Positions 13,991 to 64,000 of a stretch of DNA of 64,000 nt are shown here, in pieces. Within the stretch, counting starts at the first letter, position 1, and every line of letters begins with the position of its first letter. Source of the DNA: an uncultured Ardenticatenaceae bacterium (GTDB lineage Bacteria > Chloroflexota > Anaerolineae > Promineifilales > Promineifilaceae); contig CAZXVH010000001.1 in NCBI GenBank assembly GCA_964643965.1, positions 54,980-118,979 of the forward strand. The letters run 5' to 3'. The notes beneath the pieces were generated by a model that did no database searches, had not been told where the DNA came from, and saw only the letters and a program-made list of their open reading frames with translations. The position numbers and the translations under genes were made by a program.

Positions 13991-14032
13991 CCACTCGCTA
14001 CTCGCCACTCGCTACTCGCTACTCGCCACTCG
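13991..14032. repeat. Six tandem heptamers (CCACTCG/CTACTCG)
   Basis: Read directly; overlaps the last 4 codons and the stop of the minus-strand STAND-WD40 gene. Confidence 0.9.
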
Positions 14033-19604: not shown

Positions 19605-19723
19605 TCGGCTGCGGGCGGCCGTTGGCGTAAAATTGGCGGTTGAGTGAAGATTGCTTACGTTAGAAGTTCAACTTCTTGGTAGATCAGGCAATAGTATGCC
19701 AAATCCAATGGAAACCCAAAACT

Positions 19724-21797: not shown

Positions 21798-22366
21798 TCA
21801 TTGGTGGAATTTATTCGTTCAACAGGGGTCAAGAAATAATTAAAGCGAATTATAGTGACGAGTTGGCAGAAGTGATTAGAGTCATTGAATCAGTCGATTC
21901 TACCATACACAAAACCAAGACCAGTGCAGAAAAAACGATGCCTGGTAGACTTCTTTTCAAACCAAGCTCCTTAAATAAATCATTCAAGAAAAAATTCGTG
22001 TCCTATGGGTGGGATGCAAACACACGCATCCTCTGCGACTATCCTACTGAATTCTATGCATCAGAGTATTCTCCGTCCTCTACAACTCGAAATGCCTACC
22101 GCGAAATCGATTTCGTTAAAAACAGGCTAGGTGTGGAAGTGCAGTTCGGGAAATATGCTTTTATGGTTTACAATGTTTGTGCCAAAATGACGATATTTCA
22201 TAATGAAGGTTTTATTGACGCTGGTATTGAAATTGTGCCTTTAAAAGAACTGGCTGTACAAATGTCTACCGGCGTCTCGTATTTTGAGCAGTTTGTCTGG
22301 GATTTAGAGCATAGAGGCGTTTCAGATATTGATATTCCTGTTATGATCATTGGCCTTTCAGAGTAG
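21794..22366 (+). CDS. Type II restriction endonuclease, BglII/BstYI-like
   Basis: Start at MIIGGIY (ATGA overlap with the MTase stop). EIDFVKNRLGVEVQFGKYAFMVYNV and the C-terminal YFEQ...DIPVMIIGLSE resemble my recollection of BglII (DIDFGKRDTLVEVQFSNYPF..., YYEQ...DVPIRLVGLIE). Confidence 0.6.
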   Translation: MIIGGIYSFNRGQEIIKANYSDELAEVIRVIESVDSTIHKTKTSAEKTMPGRLLFKPSSLNKSFKKKFVSYGWDANTRILCDYPTEFYASEYSPSSTTRNAYREIDFVKNRLGVEVQFGKYAFMVYNVCAKMTIFHNEGFIDAGIEIVPLKELAVQMSTGVSYFEQFVWDLEHRGVSDIDIPVMIIGLSE

Positions 22367-43156: not shown

Positions 43157-43453
43157 ATGAATTTAGATGATTTGATGAACCAAGAAAATCTGCAAGCATT
43201 TTGCCAACAGCATCACATTCGCAAGCTGGCTGTTTTTGGTTCCGCCTTGACGGACGATTTTCAAGCAGACAGCGACATTGATTTGTTGGTTGAATTTGAA
43301 CCTGGACATACACCTGGGCTGGCTTTTTTCACTATTCAAGAGGAACTATCGGAGCTTTTAGGACGGCAAGTCGATTTACATACACCAAACTCGTTAAGTC
43401 CCTATTTTCGAGAAACAGTCATCAGAGAAGCCCGAGTTCACTATGCAGCGTGA
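43157..43453 (+). CDS. MNT-type nucleotidyltransferase antitoxin (MntA-like)
   Basis: LAVFGSALTDDFQADSDIDLLVEF (GS...DxD nucleotidyltransferase motif). Confidence 0.8.
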   Translation: MNLDDLMNQENLQAFCQQHHIRKLAVFGSALTDDFQADSDIDLLVEFEPGHTPGLAFFTIQEELSELLGRQVDLHTPNSLSPYFRETVIREARVHYAA

Positions 43454-43775
43454 TGAAGTCCGTTTGCGCCACATGCTGGATGCTGCTGAAGAAGCGGTTT
43501 CTTTTATGGTTGATCATACACGATCTGATTTAGATACAGATAAGCTATTGGCTTTGGCAATGGTTCGCTTACTGGAAATCATTGGAGAAGCAGCCCATGC
43601 AGTGACAGAAGAAACGCAACAGAAAAACCCACAAATCCCTTGGCGACAAATTAAAGGTACACGTAATCGCCTCATCCATGGCTATTATCATGTTGACATG
43701 GATATTGTGTGGCAAATTGTTAGACAAGACTTGCCACCATTGATTGCTAATTTGGAAAAGATGATCAATAGTTGA
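43443..43775 (+). CDS. HEPN/DUF86 toxin (HepT-like)
   Basis: RNRLIHGYYHVD (Rx4-6H HEPN motif); 11-nt overlap with the MNT gene. Confidence 0.8.
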   Translation: MQRDEVRLRHMLDAAEEAVSFMVDHTRSDLDTDKLLALAMVRLLEIIGEAAHAVTEETQQKNPQIPWRQIKGTRNRLIHGYYHVDMDIVWQIVRQDLPPLIANLEKMINS

Positions 43776-45577: not shown

Positions 45578-46744
45578 CTAATAGAGGAACATCGGCTTGC
45601 CCAGGACGTGGCGCACTTTGGGCCGGTACTGCGTTCTGTCATACAGTTCATCCACATCCACGCGCTTGACGCTGCTGGTGACCATGCTCACGGGGATGTG
45701 GGTGTACGTGCCGTCACGCAGCGCCACCATGCGCCCACTGACGCCATCTTCAATGAGATCCATCGCCAGATGCGCGTAGTTAGCCGCCACCATCAAGTCG
45801 AGGGCGTCAGGCGCGCCGGAGCGCATCAGATAGCCGATGCGCTGATTAATGATGTTTTGGCCGGTGATTTTCTTGATGGCTTCAGCTGTAATTTCGCCGA
45901 TGCCGCCCAGTTTACGATGCCCATATGCATCCGCTTCGCCGTATTCCACCACTGCGCCGCCAGCCATATGCGCGCCTTCGCTGATAGAGATGATGGCGTA
46001 GTTGCTGGGATTACTCCTTTTGTCTTCCAACACGAACGCCGCCAATTTTTCGGGGTCAAAGGGCACCTCAGAAATGAGCGCCCGATCTACGCCCGCCAGA
46101 TAGGAGCTGATGAGACTGGTTTCGCCGCTATTGCGCCCAAATAGCTCCACGACGGCGATGCGTTCATGGGAACCGGTGCTGGTGCGGAGTTGGTTGAGGA
46201 ACTGGACGCTGCGGGTAACGGCCGTTGAGAAACCAATGCAGTAATCCGTGCCATAGACATCGTTGTCCATTGTTTTGGGAATGGCAATGACGGGGAAGCC
46301 TTCACTGTGCAAGCGCTCGCCGTAGCTCAAGGTGTCATCGCCGCCAATGGGGATGAGCCGTTCAATGCCCAGGTATTCCAAATTCGATAACACATGGGGC
46401 GTAAAATCCCGCAGCCGGTTATCCTCCGCTTCCGCGTCTAAATGGTCTGGGTCTTTTAGGAAATCTGGCACACGGTGCCGGCTCACTTTGCCCGGGTGGG
46501 TGCGGCTGGTGTGTAAGAACGTGCCGCCAGTGCGATCAATCTTACGCACGACTTGATTGTCCAGGGGGATGAAGTTTTTCTCAAAACTGTCGGGATCATC
46601 CTGGTTAAAATCTAACAAACCACCCCAGCCGCGACGTACGCCCACAATCTCGTGCCCTTGTGCAATGGCCCGGTTTACCACCGCTTTGATGCATGGATTC
46701 AGCCCCGGCACATCGCCGCCGCCTGTTAAAATACCTAATTTCAT
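45578..46744 (-). CDS. 6-phosphofructokinase paralog 1 (PPi-type signature residues)
   Basis: [25 protein letters not shown] (Asp at the E. coli Gly104 position), IPKTMDNDV (Lys at the Gly124 position); 388 aa. Confidence 0.85.
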
Positions 46745-46765
46745 GTAATCTTATCTCCTTGGATT

Positions 46766-46837
46766 TAGTCGGATAGTCGGATAGTCGGGTAGTCGGGTAG
46801 TCGAGTAGTCGGGTAGTCGAGTAGTCGAGTAGTCGGG
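46766..46837. repeat. Nine tandem octamers (TAGTCGGA/TAGTCGGG/TAGTCGAG)
   Basis: Read directly, starts 22 nt upstream of the pfk paralog 1 start. Confidence 0.95.
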
Positions 46838-46864
46838 TGGTTGGTGCATTGGTTGTAAACTGTT

Positions 46865-47018
46865 TACCGATTATCGATTACCGATTACTGTTCACTGTCC
46901 GCCGTTCGCTGTCCACTGTTCACTGCCCACTGTCCACTGCCGACTGCCCACTGCCCACTGTCCACTGTCCACTGTCCACTGTCCACTGCCCACTGTTCAC
47001 TGTCCACTGCCCACTGTC
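46865..47018. repeat. 22 tandem heptamers (CACTGTC/CACTGCC/CACTGTT and variants)
   Basis: Read directly in 7-nt phase from 46865; ends 3 nt before the stop of pfk paralog 2. Reverse complement GACAGTG is the same word as the CAGTGGA array at 33788. Confidence 0.95.
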
Positions 47019-47021
47019 GTG

Positions 47022-48227
47022 CTACCCTTCACTCGTCATAATCAACAATGGTTTCATCTCAAAGCTTTTGTAGTGGGGGCGCAGGCGTTCGGTATTGTAG
47101 AACTGTTTGACATCCACGAACTTTTTGCTGCTGGTGACGACGGTGATGGGCACATTGTCATAACGGCCGTTCTTCAACACCACTAAACGGCCGTAAATAT
47201 TGTTCAAAATCAAATCCAGCGCCAGATTGCCATAGGCCATGGGCACAATCGAATCCACTGCATCCGGATCGCCAGAGCGTACCAGATAACCCAGCTTCTG
47301 GATAATCGGATCAATCCGTCTACCTTTATTAAACTTAGGCGAAATCTCCTTCAACTTCTGGCCCACCACTTCGCCAATGCCGCCCAGCTTGGCGTGACCA
47401 TACATATCCAATTCAGAATCTTTGAAGATCATATCGCCGCCTTCAAACATGGCTCCTTCTGAAATCAGCACCACCGAATAACGGCTCGGATTCTTAAATC
47501 GATCCTCCGCCAGTAGTTCCGTTAACCGCTCGATATTGAACTTATACTCTGGGATCACGCAACGATTGGCCGCTCCCGCCATTGTGGGCAGCATCGCCGT
47601 AAAACCAGCATAGCGGCCAAACACCTCCAACACCAAAAAGCGCTCGTGCGAACCGGCCGAGGTGCGCAGGCGGTTTGTCATCTCAATGGTGCGGGTGACA
47701 CAGGTGCTAAAGCCAATGCAATAATCGGTGCCTGGCACATCGTTATCCATCGTTTTGGGAATGGCCACGACCTTGACCCCATGCTGGTACAACGTCACGC
47801 CATAACTCAGGGTATCGTCGCCGCCAATGGGGATGAGGTAATCAATGCCCAGATATTCCAGGTTTTTGATGATTTCTGGCGTCAAATCATTGATCTCTTC
47901 GTTGTACATCTCTTTTAGATGTTCAGGCACATCTTTTTTAGGCATATGGCTGGGGCGCGTACGTGAACTGTGCAAAAAAGTGCCGCCGGTGCGGCCGGCC
48001 TTGTTCACGATCTCCTCAGTCAGATCCACGTAATTATCGCTGTTGTCTGCCTTTTTATCGCGGATCAACTCTGTGATACCGGCCCAGCCGCGGCGTAAGC
48101 CAATCACCTTATACCCTTCGCGCACCGCCCGAATGGTTACCGCGCGTATGGCCGGATTAAGACCTGGCACATCGCCGCCACCTGTTAAGATCCCGATAAC
48201 CCCTTTGATTTTATTGACTTGTGTCAT
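47022..48227 (-). CDS. 6-phosphofructokinase paralog 2 (PPi-type signature residues)
   Basis: [34 protein letters not shown]; 401 aa. Confidence 0.85.
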   Translation of the reverse strand: MTQVNKIKGVIGILTGGGDVPGLNPAIRAVTIRAVREGYKVIGLRRGWAGITELIRDKKADNSDNYVDLTEEIVNKAGRTGGTFLHSSRTRPSHMPKKDVPEHLKEMYNEEINDLTPEIIKNLEYLGIDYLIPIGGDDTLSYGVTLYQHGVKVVAIPKTMDNDVPGTDYCIGFSTCVTRTIEMTNRLRTSAGSHERFLVLEVFGRYAGFTAMLPTMAGAANRCVIPEYKFNIERLTELLAEDRFKNPSRYSVVLISEGAMFEGGDMIFKDSELDMYGHAKLGGIGEVVGQKLKEISPKFNKGRRIDPIIQKLGYLVRSGDPDAVDSIVPMAYGNLALDLILNNIYGRLVVLKNGRYDNVPITVVTSSKKFVDVKQFYNTERLRPHYKSFEMKPLLIMTSEG

Positions 48228-48288
48228 GATTGCTATCTCCTAATTACAGTTCAGATTGGTTCAATCTCGTCTAATGAAAAGCGAACGT

Positions 48289-50514
48289 TTACTCCGCGTG
48301 GATACGGGGTCCCGGCTGCGCCAACAAGCGCACAATCGGGCGTAAATCCATCCACCACTGTTCTTTGGGACGGCCGTATTTACTATCTACCATGCGCGGC
48401 AAATCTTCCATGGGGGTCAGCTTGAATTCGCCGCCCGCCAAACCAATAAACGAACTATCCCGCTGATTTTGCCCGATGTGTTCTTCCAGAAAATCGATGC
48501 AATCAGAGGCTAACCGTGTGGCCAGAATGCGGTCATAAGGAGTGGGATTGCCCCCTTGCTGCAAGTGACCCAGAATCGCCTGGCGTACATCAAACAGGTC
48601 GCCCCCTTCCTCTTCAAAAAGCGCCCGCATGAAGTCAGTGGTGTAAACCTCATTCGCGTGTTCGTTACGAATCATCAAACCCACGCGCTTGCCCTGTTCA
48701 AAACCCGCTACCAGCGTGTTGACATCTTGCACCATGTCCCGCAGCGTTACCCCTTCTTCGTGCAAGTAGACGCGCTCCGCGCCCGTGGCCAGCGCCGACG
48801 TGAGCGCCAGATAACCGCAGTAGTGGCCCATCACTTCTACCACAAAGGTACGTCGTGAAGCCACCGCCGACTGCTTGATTTTGTCTACGGCATCAACGAT
48901 ATTGTTGAGCGCTGTATCCGCGCCGACGCTTAATTGAGAACCGGGCAGGTTGTTGTTGATGCTGGCCGGCAGGCACATCATGGGGATGTTGAAAGCCGGG
49001 AAATTTTCACGAAGGCAGTGCATTTCATACACTGCCTGATACCCGGTGAGGCCGCCGATGACCAAAATGCCTTCTATCTGATGCTCTTCCAGGTTGCGGG
49101 CAATGGCGTACCATTCGCCTCCTTCCGGCACGGTGCGGTTGGTGCCAAATTCGGAGCCGCCCATGGGGGCCAGGCCAGCCACGTCCATCCAGGAAAGCTC
49201 TTTGATTTCACCGCGAATCATGCCGCGAAAGCCGCGGCTGACGCCCAACATGATATGCCCTTTATCCATACCCAGGCGGACGGCGGCGCGAACGGCCGTG
49301 TTCATGCCTGGCGCCGGACCGCCGGCGTTTAAGACGGCGATGCGCATACGTCTTTGCCCCGGTTTGGGTTCATGGGGCAGGGCGCGTACCAGGGTGCGCA
49401 GGGTGCGGAATGATTTGCGAAAGCTGCGTCCACGTAAATCCATCGCTTTTTCAAAGTCACCGGTTTTCACGGCCGTGCTTACCGCCTCGGTTGCTTCCAG
49501 GCAGAGGGACAGGGGGGTGCGCGTGATTTTATTGCCTTGAATGCCCATCACAAAAGGCTCGGCGCCGGGTGTGTCGTTGAGCAGTTCTTCCACGGCGCGG
49601 ACGCCAAGCTGGGTCGCCAGATTGCGGTCAAAGGCGCTGGGTGAGCCGCCGCGCTGCACATGGCCCAAGACGGTGATGCGCGTATCCTCCCCCAGGCGTT
49701 CTTCCAGCGTCTGGCGCACATGTTCACTGGTGATGGGCTTGCCATGCCGGTCTTGTGCCCCTTCAGCTACGATGACGATACTGTCGCGCCGGCCGATTTC
49801 CCGGCCATGTGACAATACTTCACACATTTTGTCTTCCCAATTGTCGAGGTTGGGGGGGGATTCAGGGATCAGCACCCAGTCCGCGCCGGTGGCCAGGCTG
49901 GACATGAGGGCCAAATAGCCGCAGCGCCGTCCCATCACTTCGATGACGAAACTACGTTGATGGCTGGCGGCCGTGCTGGTGATGGCGTCTACCGCTTCCA
50001 CGATGCGGTGCAAGGCGGTGTCGGCGCCGGTGGTCATATCCGTGCCGTACATGTCGTTGTCGATGGAGCCGATGATGCCGGCGATGGCGATGTGGGCATG
50101 TTGGTTGGCGGCTTTTTTGGTGATGACGCCTGTTTCAACCAGTTCTGCCAACAGTCCCGGCCATTCTTGATAGAGCACATAAGCGCCAGTCTGGCTGCCA
50201 TCGCCGCCAATGCAGACCAGGCTGTCGATGTCAGCTTTAATGAGATTAGCCACGGCTTTGAGACGGCCGGCCCGTTCCTTAAATTCCTGGCTGCGGGCGG
50301 AGCCAATGATAGTGCCGCCTTGTTGCAATATGCCACCTACGTCGTTCCAGCCCAAGGGCCGGATGAAAGCGGCGCCATCGACCATACCCTGGAAGCCTTC
50401 GTAGATGCCCATCACTTCTGTGCCATAATCTAGTGCGGTACGCACCACGGCCCGCACTGCGGCGTTCATACCCTGGGCGTCGCCACCGCTTGTGAATACG
50501 CCTATTCGTTTCAT
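48289..50514 (-). CDS. Double-domain (tandem-fused, eukaryote-like) ATP-type 6-phosphofructokinase
   Basis: N-half: GVFTSGGDAQGMN, CIGGDGS, IGSIDNDM, VMGRRCGYLA. C-half: VLNAGGPAPGMN, but degenerate IGGLTG, PASINNN, VMGHYCGYLA. 741 aa. Confidence 0.85.
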   Translation of the reverse strand: MKRIGVFTSGGDAQGMNAAVRAVVRTALDYGTEVMGIYEGFQGMVDGAAFIRPLGWNDVGGILQQGGTIIGSARSQEFKERAGRLKAVANLIKADIDSLVCIGGDGSQTGAYVLYQEWPGLLAELVETGVITKKAANQHAHIAIAGIIGSIDNDMYGTDMTTGADTALHRIVEAVDAITSTAASHQRSFVIEVMGRRCGYLALMSSLATGADWVLIPESPPNLDNWEDKMCEVLSHGREIGRRDSIVIVAEGAQDRHGKPITSEHVRQTLEERLGEDTRITVLGHVQRGGSPSAFDRNLATQLGVRAVEELLNDTPGAEPFVMGIQGNKITRTPLSLCLEATEAVSTAVKTGDFEKAMDLRGRSFRKSFRTLRTLVRALPHEPKPGQRRMRIAVLNAGGPAPGMNTAVRAAVRLGMDKGHIMLGVSRGFRGMIRGEIKELSWMDVAGLAPMGGSEFGTNRTVPEGGEWYAIARNLEEHQIEGILVIGGLTGYQAVYEMHCLRENFPAFNIPMMCLPASINNNLPGSQLSVGADTALNNIVDAVDKIKQSAVASRRTFVVEVMGHYCGYLALTSALATGAERVYLHEEGVTLRDMVQDVNTLVAGFEQGKRVGLMIRNEHANEVYTTDFMRALFEEEGGDLFDVRQAILGHLQQGGNPTPYDRILATRLASDCIDFLEEHIGQNQRDSSFIGLAGGEFKLTPMEDLPRMVDSKYGRPKEQWWMDLRPIVRLLAQPGPRIHAE

Positions 50515-52781: not shown

Positions 52782-54092
52782 ATGCAATTTCGTGAATTCC
52801 TTGAACAAATCGCTGAGAGCGGCGATCTCATCACCATCAGCAAACCGGTTGACGCCACCTTTGAAGTGGCCAACGTGGCCCACGCCCTGGAAGGCCGCCT
52901 CGTCCTCTTCGACAATATCAAAGCGCATCCCGGTTGGCGCATCTGCGCCGGCCCCTGCTCTGACCGTCGTTACTTCGCCATGAGTCTTGGCGTTTCTATT
53001 GATGGATTGGTCCATCGCCTGGCTGACGCCCTGGAAAATCCGCAAACGCCCCCCGTCGTGGAAACCGCGCCTTGCCAGGAAGTGATCACCGAGGATGTGA
53101 ATCTCTATGATCTGCCTATTTTGCTCCATCTGCCCGCAGACGCCGGTCACTACATTGCCAGCAACGTGGTCATCATCCAGGACCCTGATTTGGGGCGCAA
53201 TATGTGTTATCATCGCCTGCTGCGACTCGACGAGAAGCGCTTTGCCGCCCGCATTGTGGAAAATCGGGGAACCCATATGGCCCTCAAAAAAACGGACGGC
53301 GATCTACCGGTGGCTATTTGCATCGGCGTCTCCCTGGCGACCCATTTGGCGGCTTCGATGTCGCCGCCGCCAGAGGTGGATGAACTGGCGGTGGCCCATG
53401 CCCTGGCCCCTACGCCGCTGGTCAAATGCTTCACCAACGATTTGCATGTCCCGGCCGACGCTGAAATTGTGTTGGAAGGGCGCATCACTCAGCAGAAACA
53501 CGCCGAAGGCCCCTTCATGGATCTGACGGAAACGATGGATATTGTGCGCGACCAGCACATCATCGAGATTGATTTGATCACGCACCGCCGAAATCCTATT
53601 TTCCACGCCTTGCTGCCCGGCGGTCTGGAGCATAAGCTGCTCATGGGCATGCCCCGTGAACCCACTATTTTCAAAGAAGTCAACAAGGTGGTGCGCTGCA
53701 CCGGTGCGGCCATTACGCCGGGCGGCGCTTCCTGGCTCCATGCGGTGGTGCAAATTGATAAGCAGGGGGCGGAAGACGGCCGTTTAGCTATCGAAGCGGC
53801 TTTCAAAGGGCATGGTTCCCTCAAACATGTGTGGGTGGTCGATACCGACATCGACATCTACGACCCGGCGCAGGTGGAATGGGCGCTGGCCACCCGCTTC
53901 CAGGCTGACAAGGATTTGATGGTATTTGAGAAGATGCCCGGCAGTTCGCTAGACCCTTCTGGCAGCCACGTTCCCGGTCAGAAAAGCCTCACCGCCAAGA
54001 TGGGCCTGGATTGTACTATTCCCTGGGGCGGGGCAGAGGCTCAATTTAAACGGGGTCAATACGGCGCTGTGGATTTGAGTGAATACCTGTAG
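52782..54092 (+). CDS. UbiD-family (prenyl-FMN dependent) decarboxylase, divergent
   Basis: Start moved to MQFREFLEQIAESGDLITISKPVD (typical UbiD N-terminus). 436 aa. EGPFMDLTETMD replaces the canonical EGPFGE.TGYY motif as I recall it. Confidence 0.75.
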   Translation: MQFREFLEQIAESGDLITISKPVDATFEVANVAHALEGRLVLFDNIKAHPGWRICAGPCSDRRYFAMSLGVSIDGLVHRLADALENPQTPPVVETAPCQEVITEDVNLYDLPILLHLPADAGHYIASNVVIIQDPDLGRNMCYHRLLRLDEKRFAARIVENRGTHMALKKTDGDLPVAICIGVSLATHLAASMSPPPEVDELAVAHALAPTPLVKCFTNDLHVPADAEIVLEGRITQQKHAEGPFMDLTETMDIVRDQHIIEIDLITHRRNPIFHALLPGGLEHKLLMGMPREPTIFKEVNKVVRCTGAAITPGGASWLHAVVQIDKQGAEDGRLAIEAAFKGHGSLKHVWVVDTDIDIYDPAQVEWALATRFQADKDLMVFEKMPGSSLDPSGSHVPGQKSLTAKMGLDCTIPWGGAEAQFKRGQYGAVDLSEYL

Positions 54093-54197
54093 TGGCGCGT
54101 AACAAAAACTTGCTACCCGCCAGCCACCACTTGCCACCTGTAATTTAAACATACCATCGTGGTAACGGCCGTTCCCCGTTAACGAGTGTGAGAAATT

Positions 54198-55820
54198 ATG
54201 AATCTACTCCCCCTGCTCCAGAACAGCGAACTTATCCAGCAAGAGTTGGCCTTTGTCCTCCTGTTAACCATTGCCGCTGGCGTGGCCCTCGTCATTCGTC
54301 GTATCCGTTTTCCATACACGGTGGCGCTGGTGCTGGTGGGCGCGGCCCTCTCCCTGGTGCCCAACTTCCTCCCCTTCGATGTGAGCAGCGATGTCATCCT
54401 GGCGATTTTAGTGCCGCCGCTGCTCTTTGAAGCTACGCTCCATATCAAATGGAAACATATGCGTAAAGACCTGGGCCTTATCGTGGCGCTGGCGGTGGGC
54501 GGCACCCTGGTGGGCACGATTATCGTGGGCGAAATTGTCACCTGGGTTTTAGATGTGCCTTTGTTGGCGGCGCTGGCCTTTGGCGCTCTTATCTCCGCCA
54601 CCGATCCGGTGGCCGTCATCGCCTTCTTCCGCAGTTTGGGCGTCAGCAAGCGGCTGTCTCTGCTGGTGGAGGGGGAAAGTTTGTTCAACGATGGCGCGGC
54701 CATCGTCATCTTTAATTTGATGGTGGCGTTGGCCATTGCCGGGCCGGACACGTTTAGTTTAAGCGGGGCCATCATCGAATTTCTGCGCGTTTCGTTGGGT
54801 GGCCTGACGATTGGGCTGGGGCTGGGCTACATCGTCTCCTACATTGTCCTCAAAAACCTGGACGACCATCTGATTGAAACGACCACGACAGTGGCCCTGG
54901 CGTTTGGCGCGTATGTGATCGCGGAAGAGTTTCATGTCAGCGGGATTTTAGCAGTGGTAGCGGCCGGCTTGATGGTGGGGAATATCGGCTTACAAAATAC
55001 TTCGCCCACCACCCGCCTGACGCTGGAGAATTTCTGGGAATTTTCCGCCTACGTGGTGAACTCCATGATCTTCCTGCTCATCGGCTTTGAACTGGAGATC
55101 GATCATCTGACGCCCTATTTGTTCCCCATTATTGTGGCGGTGGGCGCCATTTTGTTGAGCCGGGCCATTATCGTCTATGCCATGACCGGCATTCACAATG
55201 CCCTGACGCCGCATCCGCGAGATGTGCCGCAAGGTTACAAGCATGTTATGTTTTGGGGCGGGCTGCGCGGCGCTATTTCCCTGGCGTTGGCCCTGACCCT
55301 CACCGGTAAGGTATTTGGCGCGGCCATTGCCAACGAACTGCGCATCATGACCTTTGGCGTGGTTTTGTTTACCCTGGTGGTGCAGGGTACGACGATTGAA
55401 AAACTCATCAACCATTTGAAGCTGGCGGTCAAACCACAGCCGCGTGTGACCCAACAGCGCTTACAAGCCACTATTTATGCCAAACGCGCCGGTAAGCAGG
55501 AGTTGGATCGCCTGCACACGGACGATATTCTCTTCCCAGAAATTTGGCAGGCGATGAGCGATATTTATGAGGATGAAATTACTGAGGTTAAAAAAGCCTT
55601 GAATATGCATTTGCACACATATCCTGAACTGGAGCAGGAGGTTTTTTTGCAGGCACGGGAAGAAGTGCTAAAAGCGGAACGGGCGGCGTTTAGTAATGCG
55701 GCTCGGGAAGGTTTTTTATCAGACGAACTGCATCATGAACTGGTTAAAGTAGCGGATAATCATCTGGCGGCCCTGGAGATCATCAAGGAAAACCGGGGCC
55801 TGGATGAGGATGAGGATTAA
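54198..55820 (+). CDS. CPA1-family Na+/H+ antiporter (NhaP-type) with cytoplasmic C-terminal tail
   Basis: About 11 TM helices, ISATDPVAV and SLFNDGAAIV motifs. Confidence 0.85.
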   Translation: MNLLPLLQNSELIQQELAFVLLLTIAAGVALVIRRIRFPYTVALVLVGAALSLVPNFLPFDVSSDVILAILVPPLLFEATLHIKWKHMRKDLGLIVALAVGGTLVGTIIVGEIVTWVLDVPLLAALAFGALISATDPVAVIAFFRSLGVSKRLSLLVEGESLFNDGAAIVIFNLMVALAIAGPDTFSLSGAIIEFLRVSLGGLTIGLGLGYIVSYIVLKNLDDHLIETTTTVALAFGAYVIAEEFHVSGILAVVAAGLMVGNIGLQNTSPTTRLTLENFWEFSAYVVNSMIFLLIGFELEIDHLTPYLFPIIVAVGAILLSRAIIVYAMTGIHNALTPHPRDVPQGYKHVMFWGGLRGAISLALALTLTGKVFGAAIANELRIMTFGVVLFTLVVQGTTIEKLINHLKLAVKPQPRVTQQRLQATIYAKRAGKQELDRLHTDDILFPEIWQAMSDIYEDEITEVKKALNMHLHTYPELEQEVFLQAREEVLKAERAAFSNAAREGFLSDELHHELVKVADNHLAALEIIKENRGLDEDED

Positions 55821-55821
55821 G

Positions 55822-56256
55822 ATGGATTGTATTGTATGCGCCACACGGGGCGGAGAAGGCAGCCGGGCCGCACAAATGGCGGCGATTGAGCTGGCGCAGC
55901 AGTTTGGCCTGCCCCTGGTATTTTTGTATGTGACGGATCCGGGGAGTCTGGGTGAGGTGGATGAGCTGTTGCTAACGGCCGTTCGCCAGGAATTGAACTG
56001 GATGGGTAAAACATTGCTGCAAGTGGCTAAAGGGCGAGCGGAAGCGGCCAACTTGAAGGCTTCCGTGGAGATTCGGGTAGGCAATGTGCAGGAGGAGATC
56101 GAGCAGTTTTTGCGTGAAGTCCACGCTTCCGTTTTAATATTGGGCGCGCCGCGCGGGGTGACGGCCAATGTGTTTGGCGATGATGCGGTGGAACGTTTTG
56201 CCCAAACGATTCAGGCTGATACCGGTGTTGAAGTGATCGTGGTGCGTCCTGATTGA
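55822..56256 (+). CDS. Universal stress protein (USP)-like protein
   Basis: Start at MDCIVCATRGGEGS; USP-like alpha/beta pattern ...LVFLYVTD...VLILGAPRG...VEVIVV. Confidence 0.6.
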   Translation: MDCIVCATRGGEGSRAAQMAAIELAQQFGLPLVFLYVTDPGSLGEVDELLLTAVRQELNWMGKTLLQVAKGRAEAANLKASVEIRVGNVQEEIEQFLREVHASVLILGAPRGVTANVFGDDAVERFAQTIQADTGVEVIVVRPD

Positions 56257-56352
56257 GCCGCTTGAGGGATTGATTGGTGGGGCTGGAATCGATTGACCTG
56301 TGAAAGCGATTGGGAAAAGGCAAAAGGGATTTTGACAGAAGTAGAGAAGCGG

Positions 56353-56508
56353 GGCATGGTTCAAATATCCATGAAATCAGCCTGACATATTTTTGTGAAA
56401 TGATCTCTTTTTTGTGATGACAATGAATTTTAGAAGGGAGCGAATTCGTTATTTTCTAAAATTCGTTGTCATCCTTGTAAAAAGTGTAAAGCTAACTTGA
56501 ACCATGCC
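56353..56508. repeat. Nested inverted repeat (12-bp outer arms, 20-bp inner arms), AT-rich, directly upstream of the AcnX gene
   Basis: Outer GGCATGGTTCAA (56353-56364) / TTGAACCATGCC (56497-56508). Inner GATGACAATGAATTTTAGAA (56416-56435) / TTCTAAAATTCGTTGTCATC (56454-56473), 1 mismatch. Confidence 0.85.
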
Positions 56509-56521
56509 ATAAAGAGGAAAA

Positions 56522-58336
56522 ATGTCAACAATTATGCAACTGAACGAAGATCAACAAGCGATGCTGAACGGCGAACGAGGCGCGGCCAAACAGATGGGTA
56601 TGCGCCTGGTTTTAGACCTGGCCGCTGCTGCCGGGGCCACTGAGCTTATTCCCATCCAAAGCGCCCATATTTCCGGCGTGTCGCCGCTGACGGGCGGGCT
56701 GGGGCTGCGCCAATTTCTGGCGAAACTCTCCGGTGATGAACAAGCAAAAGTGGCTGTGCCGACTACACTTAATGCGGCCGGCTGTGACGAAGACCAGTTT
56801 GATGAGATGAAAATCGTCGTGCCTGACTTCCGGGAACACAATCATGAAATTGTGGCCTATTATACGCAGTTGGGCGTCCAGCCGACCCAATCTTGCACCC
56901 CGTATGAATGGGATGGCGTCGTCACCGAAGGGGTGGCGGCGTGGGCGGAATCGAACGCCATCTGCTTTGGCAATTCTTACTGCGGCCTGCTGACCAACCG
57001 CGAATCGGGGCTATCAGCGCTGGCTAGTGCGCTGACGGGTTACACGCCCAAATATGGCTTGCTGGCCGACGGCGCTCGTCAGCCCAATTTGCTGGTTGAG
57101 GTGACGGCAACAATGAGCGACCCCGCAGACTTTTCGATTTTGGGTGACTGGATTGGCATGCAGCGCAAACCATCCTGGAAGACGCCGCTTGGCCCCATTC
57201 CTCTGATTAAAGGGCTGCCGGCCGATTTAGACCATGAACAGCGCAAAGCGTTAGCGGCGGCCGCTGCCAATTACGGCTGTCCCCTGCTCTACATCGACGG
57301 CGAAGGGGATATTCCGGCCGGTGATATGCAAGATGAACTGGTATTTAGCCAGGTTGAATTGCAAAAACGATATGATGAGCTGCGTCCGCGGGTTCCCGTT
57401 TCTCTCGTCACTATTGGTTGTCCCCAGGCGTCGGTGGGAGAATTACGGGCAGCGGCCGTTCTGCTCAAAGGTAAAACGCTGCCCGCCGACGCCCCGCCCT
57501 TGTGGGTCTTCACTTCCTCTCACAACAAAGCCATCGCCGAAAAAACGGGCCTCGCCGACATCATCCGCGACAGCGGGGCGCTGCTGCTGGAAAACACCTG
57601 TCCCGAAGTGGTGCCTTACGACCAAAGCTGGGTACACCACATCCTCACCGACTCCATGAAAGCGGAGCATTACATCAAGTCTGGCTTAAACGGCATTCAT
57701 ACGTCGGTGATGACGGTGGCGGATTGCATAAGCGTGGCAAGTGGCGAGTTGCAGGTGGCGGAAGAGAAATTTACGAGTAACGATTTACGAACTCGTCCTG
57801 AGCTTGTCGAAGGATTGACGATTGAGGGCGAACAGCTAACAGATGAGGGTGTGGCGCACAGGGGGGAAACGGCCGTTTTGCAAACTGGCTCTTTTGAATC
57901 TGCGGGTCATGGATTGCCCTCGCAGGCGGATTTTAGGGTGAAGGGGCAGGCGTTTGTGACGGATACGCCGATTACGCTGTTGGGTTTTGTCAATCGGGAA
58001 ACGGGGGTGATTGAAGAGCCGGGTCATCCGATGAATGGGCAGAGCATGGCGGACAAGATCGCCATCTTCCCCAAGGGCAGCGGCTCGACGGTGGCGCCGT
58101 ATGTGCTGCTGGAGTTATTCTATCGGGGCAAGGCGCCGCTGGCGATTGTGAACACGGATATCGACCAGCAAAGTGCGCCAGCCTGTTCGTTGGAAGGGAT
58201 TCCGTATGCGTACAGTTTTGATGGGGATGTGATCGGGGGAATCAACAATGGAGACACTATCGAGTTGAGGCGGGTGGGCGAGCAGGTGGTGGTGCGGGTG
58301 TTGGAGCGGGTGACGGGGGTGGTTGGTAATGGTTAA
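56522..58336 (+). CDS. Aconitase X (AcnX) with fused large (DUF521) and small/swivel (DUF126) modules
   Basis: N-terminus LNEDQQAMLNGERGAAKQMGMRLV...IPIQSAHISG typical of DUF521. C-terminus GQSMADKIAIFPKGSGSTVAPYVLLEL..GKAPLAIVN typical of DUF126. Roughly 45-aa linker. Confidence 0.8.
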   Translation: MSTIMQLNEDQQAMLNGERGAAKQMGMRLVLDLAAAAGATELIPIQSAHISGVSPLTGGLGLRQFLAKLSGDEQAKVAVPTTLNAAGCDEDQFDEMKIVVPDFREHNHEIVAYYTQLGVQPTQSCTPYEWDGVVTEGVAAWAESNAICFGNSYCGLLTNRESGLSALASALTGYTPKYGLLADGARQPNLLVEVTATMSDPADFSILGDWIGMQRKPSWKTPLGPIPLIKGLPADLDHEQRKALAAAAANYGCPLLYIDGEGDIPAGDMQDELVFSQVELQKRYDELRPRVPVSLVTIGCPQASVGELRAAAVLLKGKTLPADAPPLWVFTSSHNKAIAEKTGLADIIRDSGALLLENTCPEVVPYDQSWVHHILTDSMKAEHYIKSGLNGIHTSVMTVADCISVASGELQVAEEKFTSNDLRTRPELVEGLTIEGEQLTDEGVAHRGETAVLQTGSFESAGHGLPSQADFRVKGQAFVTDTPITLLGFVNRETGVIEEPGHPMNGQSMADKIAIFPKGSGSTVAPYVLLELFYRGKAPLAIVNTDIDQQSAPACSLEGIPYAYSFDGDVIGGINNGDTIELRRVGEQVVVRVLERVTGVVGNG

Positions 58337-58540
58337 TTGCAACGGGAGGAGTCATTATCCGTTTCTTGTTCTTAGTTGATTGTCAAAACGGCCGTTTCCT
58401 GGCAGGCAACTGACTAATCTTGAGTCCTCCGAAGAAAGCCCTTTTTTACCGCGGAGGACGCAGAGATCGCAGAGAGGTACTCTGGTTTTTTTAATTCTCC
58501 GCGCCCTCCGCGCTCTCTGCGGTTAGTTTTTTCGGTGCAG

Positions 58541-58645: not shown

Positions 58646-58882
58646 ATGATGTCACCAATTTATGAAGAAATAATAGATTTTATCGCGGCTGGCACCACAC
58701 CTCGCAGTTTGGTTGATTTTCAACCATCCGACACAACAAAAAGCCGGGTGGCTGATTTAATTCAGCGTGAAAAAACAGAAGGTTTGTCTGCTGAAGAAAC
58801 GGAAGAATTGGATCATTATCTACAGCTAGAACATTTGATGCGTCTGGCAAAAGCCCGTGCCCGTCAACATCTCCATTCATGA
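58646..58882 (+). CDS. Small acidic protein, putative antitoxin-like partner of the downstream HNH gene
   Basis: 78 aa, TAGGAGTA RBS, 4-nt overlap (ATGA) with the next gene. Confidence 0.5.
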   Translation: MMSPIYEEIIDFIAAGTTPRSLVDFQPSDTTKSRVADLIQREKTEGLSAEETEELDHYLQLEHLMRLAKARARQHLHS

Positions 58883-59293
58883 GCAAAACCTATATCTCGC
58901 CTGAACTGCGCCAACAAGTTGCAGAGCGAGCTAACCATCGGTGTGAATATTGTCTGATTCACGAAGATGATACGTATTTGGTCTGTCAGGTAGACCATAT
59001 CATCAGTGAAAAACACGGCGGCCCCCACTCAATTAGACAATCTGGCCTATGCTTGTGTCTATTGTAATCGGTTCAAGGGGAGCGATATTGGTTCCGTATA
59101 CTGGCCGTCAGAGGAAATCGTGCGTTTTTATAACCCGCGCACAGACCAATGGGCTGATCATTTTCAGGTACAGGATGTTACGATTGTTCCCCTAACGACT
59201 ATCGGTGAAGTCACAATTCGTGTCTTTAAATTCAATCATATTGACCGGTTGTTAGAGCGCCAGGAACTTGTTGCCAGAGGTAGATATCCGTAG
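58879..59293 (+). pseudogene. HNH endonuclease disrupted by a frameshift in a C5 run
   Basis: Frame A gives ...NHRCEYCLIHEDD...VDHIISEKHGGP. Frame B continues TQLDNLAYACVYCNRFKGSDIG.... Removing one C at 59022-59026 fuses them into a canonical HNH (H..H..N..C..C). Confidence 0.6.
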
Positions 59294-59559
59294 GATTTAT
59301 CAGGTATCCGGGCCAGGCCTTTCTCGGATACTCTGCTGGGGCCTGGTTTTCCATTTGGGGCTGCGGGCGTGTCTCCGACCGAGCCGCACAGCATTCAAGA
59401 GGGCAACCCTTCGCTGTTAGAATCTGCTCTGCACCTTTGTTGTCATTCCCACTGATGCAAAATTGGTTGGTATGGCCTGGGTTTCATGCCACGTAGAGCG
59501 TGGAACGAGATAAAGATCATCGCGGAAAGTAAACGGCCGTTTCCCACCCATCAAGCAAA

Positions 59560-59590
59560 TGACTAATCTTTGATCTTTAATTTTCGGGGG
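59560..59590. repeat. Intergenic repeat word TGACTAATCTTTGATCTTTAATTTTCGGGGG (copy B), bracketed by two AACGGCCGTT palindromes
   Basis: Read directly; palindromes at 59532 and 59594. Confidence 0.8.
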
Positions 59591-59610
59591 AGTAACGGCC
59601 GTTCCCCTTA

Positions 59611-59619
59611 TGCTATAAT
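59611..59619 (+). promoter_or_regulatory. Candidate extended -10 promoter (TGcTATAAT)
   Basis: 34 nt upstream of the ATG at 59653; TAGGAGTA RBS. Confidence 0.45.
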
Positions 59620-59652
59620 AGCGGGCACAGACTAATTCTGTAGGAGTACGAG

Positions 59653-59925
59653 ATGACAACAAATCTTTTAGAAAACCTCATTGTAATCGATCCAAAACGA
59701 CACAAAGGACGTCCCGTTATTGCTGGAACTGGGGTGACGGTACGCACCGTTGTAGGACATTACAAACTTGGGCTATCCGCAGAAGAAATCGCTGATGATA
59801 TGAATATCTCGCTGGCTGGGGTTTATGCCGCATTGGCATATTATCATGCTAACACACCAGAAATCGAAGCAGACATCACAGCTAACACGGAAGCCCCAGT
59901 CATGACTGAGTTTGCCCATGGCTGA
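59653..59925 (+). CDS. DUF433-family antitoxin-like protein
   Basis: DPKRHKGRPVIAGTGVTVRTVVGHYKLGLSAEEIADDM is the DUF433 signature as I recall it. Confidence 0.7.
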   Translation: MTTNLLENLIVIDPKRHKGRPVIAGTGVTVRTVVGHYKLGLSAEEIADDMNISLAGVYAALAYYHANTPEIEADITANTEAPVMTEFAHG

Positions 59926-60276
59926 TCTTATTCGCCTTTACCTGGATGAAGACACAATTAGTCGCGCCCTCATCCGCTCCTTACGTGCCAGACAAGTTGA
60001 TCTACTCACCGCTCAAGAAACCAATCATTAGGCATGTCTGATGAGGCACAACTTCACTTTGCCGCACAAGAAAAACGCACTTTATTCACATTCAATACCC
60101 GTGATTTTGTGCAATTGCATCAAAGTTATTTGCGAGAAAACAAGCACCATGCCGGCATTATCGTTTCTGACCAACTTCAAGTTGGACTGTTGACCAAACG
60201 TCTCCTCAAATTACTCGATGCAAAAACTGCACCTGATATGCAAGATTGGTTGGAATTCTTGAGCAACTGGCGGTAG
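59918..60276 (+). pseudogene. DUF5615 (PIN-like/Mut7-C) toxin-like gene disrupted by a 1-nt deletion
   Basis: ATG 59918 reads MADLIRLYLDEDTISRALIRSLRARQVDLLTAQETNH then TAG (60029-60031). The rest (MSDEAQLHFAAQEKRTLFTFNTRDF...HAGIIV) is in the +2 frame from 60034. One extra T in CATTAGG would give ..NHLGMSDE.. Confidence 0.55.
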
Positions 60277-61055: not shown

Positions 61056-64000
61056 ATGAACAGAATTGAGATCGCCCGCCGCTTTGCCGCTTATATTCCC
61101 GTGACCCTGGCCCGCCAGATCATGGAAGTGGGGCTGCCGGAACCGGGTATACCGCACCCCTTTGCCGCCGCCACCCTGTTCTCCGACATTTCTGGTTTTA
61201 CACACATGTCGGAGGAGTTGGCGTCTGACGGGCCGCGTGGCGCGGAAGAACTCAACCGGGTACTGTTGACCACCTTTACGGCCATGATCGATCTGATTCA
61301 TGAGATGGGCGGCGCGGTCAGTCATTTTTATGGGGATGCCATGTCGGTCTATTTTCCCGAGACGGAAGAGCAGGATGCGGCGCAGCGGGCGTTGGCCTGC
61401 GCCCAGACGATGCAATTGTTGATGGCCGCCAGTTTTAGCCGGGCGGTGACGAACCGGCCGCCAGGCAAAGAGCCTATTTTCCCGCTGACGATCAAAATTG
61501 GCGTGGGTTACGGCCGTTGTCAGGAAATTGTGGTGGGGGATGCAGCCAAGAATTTGGAGTTTGTGCTGACGGGAACGGCCGTTGATGAAGCCGCCGCCGC
61601 CGAGAGAAAAGCACAGGCAGGGGAAGTAGTCGCCAGCGCCCAGGTTTTGCGCCGGGCGGAGCTGCCAGCCGCCCCGGAATCAGGGCAGTTCCGGGTTGTC
61701 AGGGAACCTGTTCCCGCGCCCGTTTCCCGGTCTATTTTGGATTGGTCTCTGTATGATGAGACAGCGCTGATGTACCTGGAGTCGGCGGCGGCCGTTTTTA
61801 TCCCGGAAGCCATCGGGCAGCGTTTAACCGAGGGCGGCAGCGGCGAGATTGCTGAACACCGGCCGGTGACGAGCCTCTTTGTCGATTTTGCCTTTGTGAG
61901 GGATGGGGATGAGCAGTCTGATGTGGCAACGGCCGTTCAAGGAATTCTGCTGCATGATTATTTTCTCTGGGCCGGTAAAATCGTGGCCCGTTTTAGCGCA
62001 GAAAACGCCCGCATCAACCGCCTCCTCACCGGTGACAAGGGCAACCAACTGCACATCATCTTTGGCGCGCCGGTGGCCCCGGACGCGCCAGAGCAGGCCA
62101 TCCGCTGCGCCCTGGCTTTGCTGCGCGAAAAACCGGCCTATATCGCCTCCCAGCGCATCGGCCTGGCGGCGGGCAAGGTGTTTGCCGGGCCGGTTGGCTC
62201 TAGCGCCCGGCGCGAGTACACGGTGGTGGGGGATATGGTCAACTTGTCAGCGCGGCTGGCCCAGGCTTGCCCGGACGACTGCATTCTCACCAACCATATC
62301 ACCGCCGGCCGCGTGGCAAACTGGATTGAATTTGAAGTGCTGCCGCCCATTGCCTTAAAGGGCAAACAAGAGGCGGTGACGCCCTATCGACCCATCGGCG
62401 AACGCACCAGGCTGACCCAATTGCAAGTTTATTTTAACCAGGGAAAACGGCCGTTAGTAGGCCGAGAGTCAGAATTAGATTTACTTCTGGGTGGCATGGA
62501 TGCGGCGCTGCACCATGTCGGTGGCATCGCCGCCATCTTGGGCGCGGTAGGCGTCGGTAAAACCCGCTTGTTGGCGGAAGGCATCCACTATTGGTTAGAG
62601 GCAGGCGGCGCCGGCCTGGTCGGCATAGCCCAGCAGCATACCGCCGATGTGCCTTACGCCCCCTGGTTGAGTATTTTCCGCGACTTTTTTAATCTGCGTG
62701 TTGATATCAGTTTGGCGGTGCAGGCGGAACAGGTGGCGGCTCAAACCAAAGCTTTGCTGCCAGATGTGGGTGACGATGTGGCTTTATGGGGCGAAGTCTT
62801 GGGGCTGCCTGTTCCCGGTCAAGAACAACTGGCGCATATGTCGGCCGAGGTGCGGCACGCTCGCTTTATGGCATTGGCGCGACGCTGTTTCATCGCCTTT
62901 AGTGAGCGCACCCCCTTACTCATCATTTTGGAAGACACACACTGGGCGGATCAATCCAGCCTGGCCCTTTTAGATGAAGTCACCAAAGGCATTGAAGATC
63001 ACCGCCTCTTTTTTGCCGTCACCTTTCGGCTCGTCGATGATCTGACGGTAGAGATGTTGGACCGTCCTGCTTGTGTGCCTATTTTGCTCTCCGATCTGCC
63101 GCCGAACCATGCCCGAGACTTGTTGTTACACCTGGTCGGCGCCGAGCGCTTACCCCTGGCGGTGGAGCAGCATCTGGGGCTGCGAGACCGGGAAGGGGGA
63201 GACAGCCCGGTCAGCCCGCTGTTTCTGGAAGAGTCAGTGAATGTGCTGTTCAGCGCCGGCATTTTAGAGCGAAATGGTTCCCTGCGGGTGCATGAGGAGC
63301 GACTCCAGGAATTGCAAATCCCGGATACGATTCATGGGCTGCTGCTGGCGCGATTAGATCGGCTGCCGCCGGCCGGCCGGGACTTACTGCAAGTGGCTTC
63401 GGTGATTGGGCGGCAGTTTGCCTTAGAGCCGCTGTTTAACATTGCCCAGAGCGCCTCCACACAGCAAGTTTCCCAGTTGATGGAAGCGATGTCGGCTGAA
63501 GACATCACTCGCCTGGTAACCACGGATCCGGAGTGGATTTATCTGTTCCAACACGCGCTCACGCATGAAGTGGCCTATGAAAGTTTGCCCTATGCCCGGC
63601 GTCAGGCGCTGCACCACGCCCTGGCCGATTGGCTGGTGGTTCAACACAGGGACAATTTACGGTCATACTACCCCATCCTGGCTTACCATTACAGCCAGGC
63701 GGATAACCATGAGGCGGGTTTAAAGTATGCCCTGGGCGCGGGTCTGGATGCCCGAGATTTGTTCTCGAATCAAGAGGCGTTGGGCTTTTTTAACCTGGCG
63801 GAGAAACATTTGTTGGCCTTGGGCGAGGAAGAGAATTGGGAAACGGCCGTTGAGCTTTATCTGGCTCGTGGAGAAGTTTTGATTTTAACAGGAGATTTCA
63901 ATAAAGCTGTAGTCGATGCGGAAATAAGTTTAGCGCTTGCAGAAAAAAATCTTGTTCCGCAACAACAAGCACAAGCTTTGAATTTGCTTGCAGAGATAAA
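61056..64000 (+). CDS. Adenylate/guanylate cyclase domain(s) - AAA ATPase - TPR regulator, 3' end cut by window edge
   Basis: Not in the ORF track because no stop is reached. My translation from ATG 61056 gives MNRIEIARRFAAYIP...ATLFSDISGFTHMSEEL (cyclase 1), VTSLFVDF...GLAAGKVFAGPVGSSARREYTVVGDMVNLSARL (cyclase 2), LVGRESELDLL...ILGAVGVGKTRLL (P-loop), LIIILEDTHWADQSS (Walker B). Confidence 0.85.
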   Translation, partial: MNRIEIARRFAAYIPVTLARQIMEVGLPEPGIPHPFAAATLFSDISGFTHMSEELASDGPRGAEELNRVLLTTFTAMIDLIHEMGGAVSHFYGDAMSVYFPETEEQDAAQRALACAQTMQLLMAASFSRAVTNRPPGKEPIFPLTIKIGVGYGRCQEIVVGDAAKNLEFVLTGTAVDEAAAAERKAQAGEVVASAQVLRRAELPAAPESGQFRVVREPVPAPVSRSILDWSLYDETALMYLESAAAVFIPEAIGQRLTEGGSGEIAEHRPVTSLFVDFAFVRDGDEQSDVATAVQGILLHDYFLWAGKIVARFSAENARINRLLTGDKGNQLHIIFGAPVAPDAPEQAIRCALALLREKPAYIASQRIGLAAGKVFAGPVGSSARREYTVVGDMVNLSARLAQACPDDCILTNHITAGRVANWIEFEVLPPIALKGKQEAVTPYRPIGERTRLTQLQVYFNQGKRPLVGRESELDLLLGGMDAALHHVGGIAAILGAVGVGKTRLLAEGIHYWLEAGGAGLVGIAQQHTADVPYAPWLSIFRDFFNLRVDISLAVQAEQVAAQTKALLPDVGDDVALWGEVLGLPVPGQEQLAHMSAEVRHARFMALARRCFIAFSERTPLLIILEDTHWADQSSLALLDEVTKGIEDHRLFFAVTFRLVDDLTVEMLDRPACVPILLSDLPPNHARDLLLHLVGAERLPLAVEQHLGLRDREGGDSPVSPLFLEESVNVLFSAGILERNGSLRVHEERLQELQIPDTIHGLLLARLDRLPPAGRDLLQVASVIGRQFALEPLFNIAQSASTQQVSQLMEAMSAEDITRLVTTDPEWIYLFQHALTHEVAYESLPYARRQALHHALADWLVVQHRDNLRSYYPILAYHYSQADNHEAGLKYALGAGLDARDLFSNQEALGFFNLAEKHLLALGEEENWETAVELYLARGEVLILTGDFNKAVVDAEISLALAEKNLVPQQQAQALNLLAEI

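Follow-up and report, generated by a model that had tools for sequence, protein, structure and literature searches.

The archaeal-type mevalonate route saves ATP and is, to our knowledge, nearly confined to Archaea. Two genes in a 64,000-nucleotide stretch of DNA from an uncultured Ardenticatenaceae bacterium (assembly GCA_964643965.1, contig CAZXVH010000001.1, positions 54,980 to 118,979 of the forward strand; hereafter the window, with positions counted from its first letter) raise the question of whether a bacterium carries both enzymes specific to that route, phosphomevalonate dehydratase (PMDh) and anhydromevalonate phosphate decarboxylase (AMPD). One gene (52782-54092) encodes a 436-aa UbiD homolog and the other (56522-58336) a fused, 604-aa AcnX. 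A first-pass annotation, made from the sequence alone, had proposed them as a PMDh/AMPD pair separated only by an antiporter and a USP-like gene. The coordinates and families of both proteins are confirmed by open reading frames (ORFs), Pfam and TIGR00148, and the intervening genes are a CPA1 antiporter and a Usp-family gene. On the evidence of sequence comparison, the two genes very probably encode PMDh and AMPD, in Chloroflexota of the Ardenticatenales/Promineifilaceae type. The pair reading draws support from the mevalonate operons in which relatives of the UbiD protein lie, from PMDh-type residues in AcnX, and from synteny with Candidatus Promineifilum breve.

Placement of the UbiD homolog

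The UbiD_N, UbiD and UbiD_C domains of the 436-aa protein all score above their Pfam gathering thresholds, and the protein reaches 339.6 bits on TIGR00148 (cut-off 244.85). The catalytic and metal-binding motifs of the family are conserved along with this three-domain architecture: R139-N140...H144-R145, H165, E201 and the catalytic motif E242-GPFM-D247, as aligned to residues of HmfF from P. thermopropionicum (PtHmfF). The roles of these residues are those that we presume from general knowledge of Fdc1 and UbiD. The protein is predicted to be an AMPD dependent on prenylated flavin mononucleotide (prFMN).

Relatives were sought by exhaustive phmmer over 1.84 billion cluster representative proteins. 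The closest ones outside the Chloroflexota family sit in mevalonate-pathway gene contexts, with scores of up to 564 bits. A protein of 60% identity on an unlabelled contig (P0241) has a mevalonate kinase (MVK) gene directly upstream (TIGR00549 243 bits, cut-off 163). At 55% identity, P0242 comes from a Ca. Diapherotrites archaeon, and its contig also carries ribosomal and RNA polymerase genes of archaeal type; the gene order around it is Memo-UbiD-AcnX large-AcnX small-UbiX-IPK, where IPK is isopentenyl phosphate kinase. The order UbiD-AcnX large-AcnX small is also found on an unlabelled contig with a 46% identical protein (P0392/P0243). In a metagenome-assembled genome (MAG) labelled Elusimicrobiota, a 41% identical protein (P0256) stands within the series IDI2-HMGR-MVK-UbiX-UbiD-AcnX large-AcnX small-IPK, with IDI2, MVK and IPK above their NCBIfam cut-offs. 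A 45% identical relative from Marsarchaeota (P0248) has a cluster member, P0396, that UniRef names anhydromevalonate phosphate decarboxylase.

The window UbiD clade is nested among the operon-linked proteins in neighbor-joining trees. With 100 bootstraps, the operon-linked set together with the window protein split from the HmfF set in 100/100 replicates, and the window clade grouped with P0241 and P0242 in 83/100. HmfF is the sole characterized aromatic-acid decarboxylase clade placed in these trees; PtHmfF joins another clade there, most of whose members are unlabelled and the single named one from Bacillota. Such a phylogeny was one of the checks suggested in the first-pass annotation, and it sets the protein with mevalonate-operon UbiD proteins, apart from the HmfF-type aromatic-acid decarboxylases.

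The catalytic loop divides the two clades just as cleanly. Mevalonate-linked UbiD proteins carry the signature EGPF[VLIM]D[LIV]T[GE]TxD (in short form EGPFxDxTxTxD), to which residues 242-253 of the window protein, EGPFMDLTETMD, conform, whereas the loop of the HmfF-like clade reads EGPFGE[YF]xxYYG. The same annotation had described the active-site motif as divergent. The motif is present as it was given, but since the loop differs clade-wide, the apparent divergence is a hallmark of the AMPD-type clade. UbiD fold and clade signature also liken the window protein to the archaeal AMPDs of A. pernix (APE_2078) and M. mazei (MM_1526), two sequences that were not themselves compared. Unlike these, it has a bacterial host, with neither UbiX nor IPK adjoining.

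Two of the loci recovered in this work call for separate mention. In L086 (5985-13786; NCBI MFA6317200.1, labelled Elusimicrobiota), the genes IDI2-HMGR-MVK-UbiX-UbiD-AcnX large-AcnX small-IPK are contiguous and make up a complete archaeal-type lower mevalonate pathway on another bacterial-labelled contig. In L085, the gene downstream of UbiD was considered as a possible AcnX and rejected, being judged MgtE-like from its sequence.

Architecture and active site of the fused AcnX

The AcnX ORF (56522-58336, + strand) encodes one chain of 604 aa that scores 314 bits on PF04412 and 74 bits on PF01989 and thus holds both a catalytic and a swivel domain. Its catalytic large part, with domains 1-2-3, takes up residues 1 to ~404 (56522-57733; Pfam AcnX at 5-403). 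A variable linker of ~65 residues (~405-471; 57734-57934) follows, which is little conserved and aligns with gaps to the P. breve ortholog, and then comes the swivel, domain 4, the equivalent of the small subunit (residues ~472-604; 57935-58336; AcnX_swivel_put at 485-561), which was aligned to the archaeal small subunits TK1248 and AF0055. In type I AcnX enzymes the order is 4-1-2-3, while type II enzymes consist of two subunits (PMC10040528, PMC8184944). The large-then-swivel order of the window protein is the reverse of type I and sets this protein apart from the two-subunit enzymes of type II as well. Archaeal PMDh is of type IIb, with separate large and small subunits (A. pernix APE_2087.1/APE_2089; T. 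kodakarensis TK1249/TK1248, PDB 7CNR, 7CNS), and has catalytic and swivel domains in common with the window protein. Being a single chain, the latter is therefore not a canonical type IIb enzyme in this respect, though we predict that it acts as one.

Residues were mapped onto T. kodakarensis PMDh, and their roles were taken from the crystal structures of the T. kodakarensis enzyme and of the A. tumefaciens cis-3-hydroxy-L-proline (C3LHyp) dehydratase (PMC8184944) and from mutagenesis of A. pernix PMDh (PMC10040528). In A. pernix PMDh, the cysteine ligands C122, C297 and C356 occupy sites A, 1 and B (PMC10040528). The window protein has C125, C300 and C360 at these sites and E362 at site C, as opposed to Val in PMDh and Cys in the A. 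tumefaciens enzyme. The latter has Cys at sites A and B, as PMDh does, and Ser in place of the PMDh Cys at site 1. This pattern of Cys at A, 1 and B and none at C is invariant in 76 orthologs.

The residues around the substrate tell the same two enzymes apart. The phosphate loop (positions 48-50) reads G52-V53-S54 in the window protein and G-V-S in PMDh, and the A. tumefaciens enzyme has Ile206 at position 50. Position 47 is Ser, as it is in two of the operon PMDh proteins (Ala in PMDh otherwise), against Asp203 in A. tumefaciens. At small-subunit position 27 the window has L487, matching Leu in T. kodakarensis (Tyr or Phe in the operon PMDh proteins), against Trp35; small-subunit positions 62-64 are S522-T523-V524, matching S-T-V in PMDh, against S-C-T. 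The four positions that separate recognition of mevalonate 5-phosphate from that of C3LHyp are all PMDh-like. Further substrate-contact residues are N84, E143, S144, K380 and Y384, and 12 of the 14 residues that bind mevalonate 5-phosphate in T. kodakarensis PMDh are kept (G48-V49-S50, N79, E129, S130, K361, Y365, L27, S62, T63 and V64). We accordingly predict [4Fe-4S] ligands at C125, C300 and C360, a catalytic serine at S522, and specificity residues at T523, V524 and L487. Over the 76 Chloroflexota orthologs the PMDh-type residues are near-invariant, with few and conservative exceptions. Between a PMDh-like and a hydroxyproline dehydratase-like active site, these residue-level comparisons are decisive for the predicted PMDh-like one.

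Conservation of the pair and surroundings of the locus

With each species represented by one genome, a scan yielded 103 relatives of the fused AcnX, and the best 80 loci were analyzed with 10-kb flanks and clustered ORFs. Almost all of the 103 species-representative genomes are labelled Chloroflexota, of Ardenticatenales/Promineifilaceae type; the pair is therefore a family-wide trait and no one-off. At 62-90% identity, close homologs of the UbiD and of the AcnX protein occur in MAGs of Chloroflexota that carry the labels Ardenticatenaceae, Candidatus Promineifilaceae, Leptofilum, Leptovillus and Promineifilum. Of 77 loci, the window and 76 related ones from Chloroflexota, 54 have UbiD upstream of AcnX and co-directional with it, and five have the two genes directly adjacent (L039, L064, L073, L074 and L078). 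The pairing is not a matter of chance. What lies between the two genes differs from locus to locus, most commonly a CPA1 antiporter, Usp and an MscS-like channel; after AcnX there usually come a Kef-type antiporter and then a PII-like gene of small size. Probably an ancestral UbiD-AcnX pair, adjacent as in P. breve and in the archaeal operons, was later split to varying degrees by insertions of ion-transport and stress genes. The recurrence of CPA1, MscS, Usp and Kef around the pair might mean that isoprenoid precursor supply is co-regulated with ion or osmotic stress.

LN890655.2, the chromosome of P. breve, has a 436-aa UbiD (CUS05430.2) that ends 11 nt before a 594-aa AcnX (CUS05429.2, or P0476, which was recovered by a search seeded with a Promineifilum AcnX). 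The window UbiD is 76% identical to its counterpart, without gaps and of equal length, and the AcnX proteins are 63% identical. The two loci are orthologous and syntenic. They share the Ardenticatenales/Promineifilaceae-type Chloroflexota lineage, a single-chain AcnX with large-linker-swivel order, and an SH3-domain gene upstream on the opposite strand. Memo and FtsZ genes also lie upstream of the P. breve pair, and a Na+/H+ exchanger downstream. Unlike the window, P. breve has this FtsZ gene (which recurs in 27 related loci), and in place of its 11-nt gap the window has 2.4 kb with the CPA1 and Usp genes. The P. breve genome reportedly contains the whole gene set of the archaeal pathway, and the activities of PMDh and AMPD are said to have been confirmed experimentally. 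An archaeal mevalonate pathway is reported for this organism in a 2024 paper (Kanno et al. 2024, AEM 90:e01106-24), and a 2026 review cites Kanno et al. 2024 for the archaeal-type pathway in Chloroflexota. A caveat raised beforehand, that homologs might already have been noted in some Chloroflexota, was right, so the case is rare but already described.

A Memo-family gene is found beside UbiD in more than one setting. It immediately precedes UbiD in the operon from Diapherotrites (L084 9115-9939) and lies 2.4 kb upstream of UbiD in P. breve (L088 5046-6275), and a Memo-like cluster occurs in 7 Chloroflexota loci. This neighborhood could be a coincidence or an unrecognized association.

In the window, 2429 bp separate the UbiD stop from the AcnX start, and all four genes lie on the + strand; a public JGI assembly of this organism shows identical calls for them. 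The CPA1-type Na+/H+ antiporter (54198-55820, 540 aa; TIGR00831 322 bits, cut-off 279.6) is probably not a pathway component; it is missing between UbiD and AcnX in P. breve and five other loci. In the public assembly the Usp-family gene (55876-56256; Pfam Usp) is called with 126 aa; the longest ORF for it begins at 55804. Just before AcnX, a spacer of 265 bp holds AT-rich nested inverted repeats (56353-56508) with perfect outer arms of 12 nt and inner hairpin arms of 29 nt, present in this genome only among 89 loci compared. They may be the remnant of a small mobile element, resembling a miniature inverted-repeat transposable element, or an operator; since the palindrome is not conserved in related loci, a family-wide operator was ruled out. 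Two terminator-like hairpins with T-runs lie 3' of the AcnX stop (58470-58530, + strand), as consensus matches in a scan whose overall count does not exceed shuffled expectation. The promoter scan of the window likewise gave nothing above shuffled expectation, and Rfam and tRNA scans of it gave no matches. Co-transcription of UbiD, CPA1, Usp and AcnX is possible, given that the genes are co-directional, that two of the spacers have no terminator-like site and that two such sites follow AcnX, in scans not above chance.

Downstream of AcnX, small toxin-antitoxin-like ORFs (58646-60276), with DUF433 at 59653-59925 and DUF5615 at 60034-60276, locally replace the Kef-type antiporter that P. breve and 44 related loci have at this position and the PII-like gene present there in 32 loci. 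Beyond them, a long ORF (61056-64000, + strand) runs off the window end and is 31% identical over ~990 aa to a 1019-aa protein of L046. It has FSDISGFT near its N-terminus, which we take to be a class III nucleotidyl-cyclase motif. On the other side of the pair, three phosphofructokinase (PFK) genes form a tandem row (45578-50514, - strand). One of them encodes a 741-aa tandem-domain protein that reaches 991 bits on TIGR02478, a model of eukaryote-type 6-phosphofructokinase (cut-off 708), which is unusual for a bacterium. Upstream of UbiD in related loci, a tandem PFK is found in 4 and a single-domain PFK in 3. Farther away lie a 1367-aa nSTAND1 NTPase with WD40 repeats (14019-18122, - strand), a BglII-type restriction-modification pair (20811-22366, + strand) and an MNT/HepT toxin-antitoxin pair (43157-43775, + strand).

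Rival functions, proposed route and significance

Several observations weigh against assigning the pair to the archaeal mevalonate route. No MVK, IPK, UbiX, HMG-CoA synthase (HMGS), HMG-CoA reductase (HMGR) or IDI was found in the 64-kb window by Pfam scans of all ORFs of at least 150 aa or by NCBIfam, and the ~3.5 kb upstream of the window contain only a subtilase and an ABC transporter. In addition, tblastn with MVK, IPK, UbiX, HMGR and IDI2 references found no match in the window, in agreement with the earlier remark that UbiX, MVK and IPK were absent from it. Across the 80 related loci, tblastn for pathway genes within 10 kb of AcnX gave a single MVK, 8 kb from AcnX in a related Promineifilaceae locus (L009). 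The UbiD trees contain neither of the biochemically characterized enzymes of A. pernix and M. mazei (no cluster representative matched the termini of the M. mazei protein, as deduced from primers), and 12 related loci with ~10 kb of upstream sequence have no UbiD nearby. It is from P. breve's adjacent pair that we infer CUS05429 and CUS05430 to be the proteins assayed by Kanno et al. At the substrate-contact positions, AcnX differs from T. kodakarensis PMDh by N53 to T, S131 to N and A47 to S. Its large part is 32-33% identical to the PMDh large subunits of T. kodakarensis and three operons, at 165-179 bits, and scores 130-135 bits against the A. tumefaciens enzyme; the PMDh large subunits themselves score 184-199 bits against that enzyme. 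From this pattern the fused Chloroflexota AcnX is therefore a divergent lineage of its own. It appears somewhat nearer to PMDh than to hydroxyproline dehydratase, in a comparison by scores that included no sequences of types IIc-IIf.

Two kinds of candidate for missing pathway genes were examined in the window and rejected. A GHMP kinase at 19676-20659, the only one in the window, is the homoserine kinase ThrB (TIGR00191 260.9 bits, cut-off 168) and not MVK. Two HMGL-like proteins are read as LeuA/CimA-type because of a LeuA dimerization domain and ilv/leu gene surroundings.

Could AcnX instead be a C3LHyp dehydratase, close to UbiD by coincidence? This was raised as a caveat in the first-pass annotation, on the ground that fused enzymes of type I have this activity. 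The A. tumefaciens enzyme is a single chain too and shares the catalytic Glu, Ser, Lys and Tyr and the swivel serine. In whole-protein phmmer comparisons it scores 151-156 bits, close to the 160 bits of T. kodakarensis PMDh, and the E-S-N motif at positions 129-131 of the window protein resembles it. Set against this are the opposite domain order, the Cys at site 1 and its absence at site C, and the replacement of Asp203, Ile206, Trp35 and Thr72 by the PMDh-type residues Ser, Ser, Leu and Val. The swivel domain is far closer to the archaeal small subunits TK1248 and AF0055 (57-63 bits) than to hydroxyproline dehydratase (24 bits), and the LhpI NCBIfam model NF051439 gives 225 bits, far under its cut-off of 700. 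Pfam scans of the window found no proline-catabolic genes nearby, and the linkage of AcnX to an AMPD-clade UbiD is conserved. The caveat does not apply, since type I has another fusion order and other active-site residues, and we consider a C3LHyp dehydratase extremely improbable. The same holds, in our judgment, for the idea that the UbiD protein is an HmfF-like or other (hetero)aromatic acid decarboxylase, acting for example on 2,5-furandicarboxylate and unrelated to isoprenoids. Its best solved-structure match is indeed PtHmfF (6h6x, 6h6v; E = 2e-75), to which it aligns over its full length at 257 bits, the next being far weaker; since HmfF is the best such match, many close homologs carry the JGI name "2,5-furandicarboxylate decarboxylase 1." The window protein keeps the metal/prFMN motifs and, as H284 and R292, the counterparts of HmfF H296 and R304, but these two do not discriminate, because the His and the Arg are common to both clades. 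HmfF R331, by contrast, is Trp in the window protein, the HmfF clade is separate and differs systematically in its catalytic loop, the closer relatives lie in mevalonate operons, and no furan or aromatic catabolic genes were found in the window.

A third alternative is that the pair acts on another substrate (another phosphorylated or CoA-free 3-hydroxy acid), or that only UbiD serves the mevalonate route and AcnX has another role. The AcnX lineage is as distant from archaeal PMDh as PMDh is from hydroxyproline dehydratase, bacterial AcnX subfamilies IIc-IIf have no assigned function (PMC10040528, PMC8184944), three contact residues differ, and the pair lies among ion-homeostasis genes with no further mevalonate gene nearby. 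Yet AcnX agrees with PMDh in its phosphate loop, in its Fe-S ligands and in its specificity residues, it directly adjoins an AMPD-clade UbiD in P. breve and other loci as in the archaeal UbiD-AcnX operons, and the archaeal pathway is reported for P. breve (Kanno et al. 2024). We regard this alternative as quite unlikely.

If the genes do encode PMDh and AMPD, the chemistry can be sketched. AcnX would be a single-chain PMDh in which C125, C300 and C360 hold a [4Fe-4S] cluster, a cluster type predicted from A. pernix PMDh. (R)-mevalonate 5-phosphate would sit where the catalytic part meets the C-terminal swivel domain, its phosphate held by the G52-V53-S54 loop and its hydroxyl and carboxylate by E143, S144, K380 and T523. 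With S522 as the base, water would be eliminated to give trans-anhydromevalonate 5-phosphate. The UbiD homolog, as AMPD, would convert this product to isopentenyl phosphate using prFMN supplied by a UbiX encoded elsewhere in the genome, and an IPK also encoded elsewhere would form isopentenyl diphosphate.

Identity to the same operons differs between the two proteins. The window UbiD is 40-54% identical to the UbiD proteins of the three AcnX-containing operons (L084, L086 and L087) and 62% identical to that of L085, which is without AcnX; the large part of AcnX is 32-33% identical to the AcnX of L084, L086 and L087. This hints at separate evolutionary histories for the two genes. With 54-62% identity to operon-linked homologs, one of them (54%) from a DPANN archaeon, AMPD looks therefore like a fairly recent acquisition. 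A mosaic origin can be tentatively put forward, in which such an AMPD joined a single-chain AcnX of a deep, separate lineage, a previously unclassified architectural type of AcnX with PMDh chemistry; we think it rather doubtful.

To go by Kanno et al. 2024, the pair is already known in this bacterial family, and the window is a further example and no discovery, adding one genome to the case reported for Ca. Promineifilum breve. What it contributes beyond that is partly practical. The EGPFxDxTxTxD signature separates AMPD-type from HmfF-type UbiD proteins, which are now automatically named "2,5-furandicarboxylate decarboxylase," and the residue comparison is useful for marking a fused AcnX as PMDh-like and not hydroxyproline dehydratase-like. 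Mesophilic, single-chain enzymes would also be on offer for metabolic engineering. The residual interest lies in the unusual large-linker-swivel AcnX and in the contrast between AMPD (54-62%) and AcnX (~33%) in identity to the same operons. An archaeal-type route in mesophilic Chloroflexota would bear on the transfer of isoprenoid pathways between domains.

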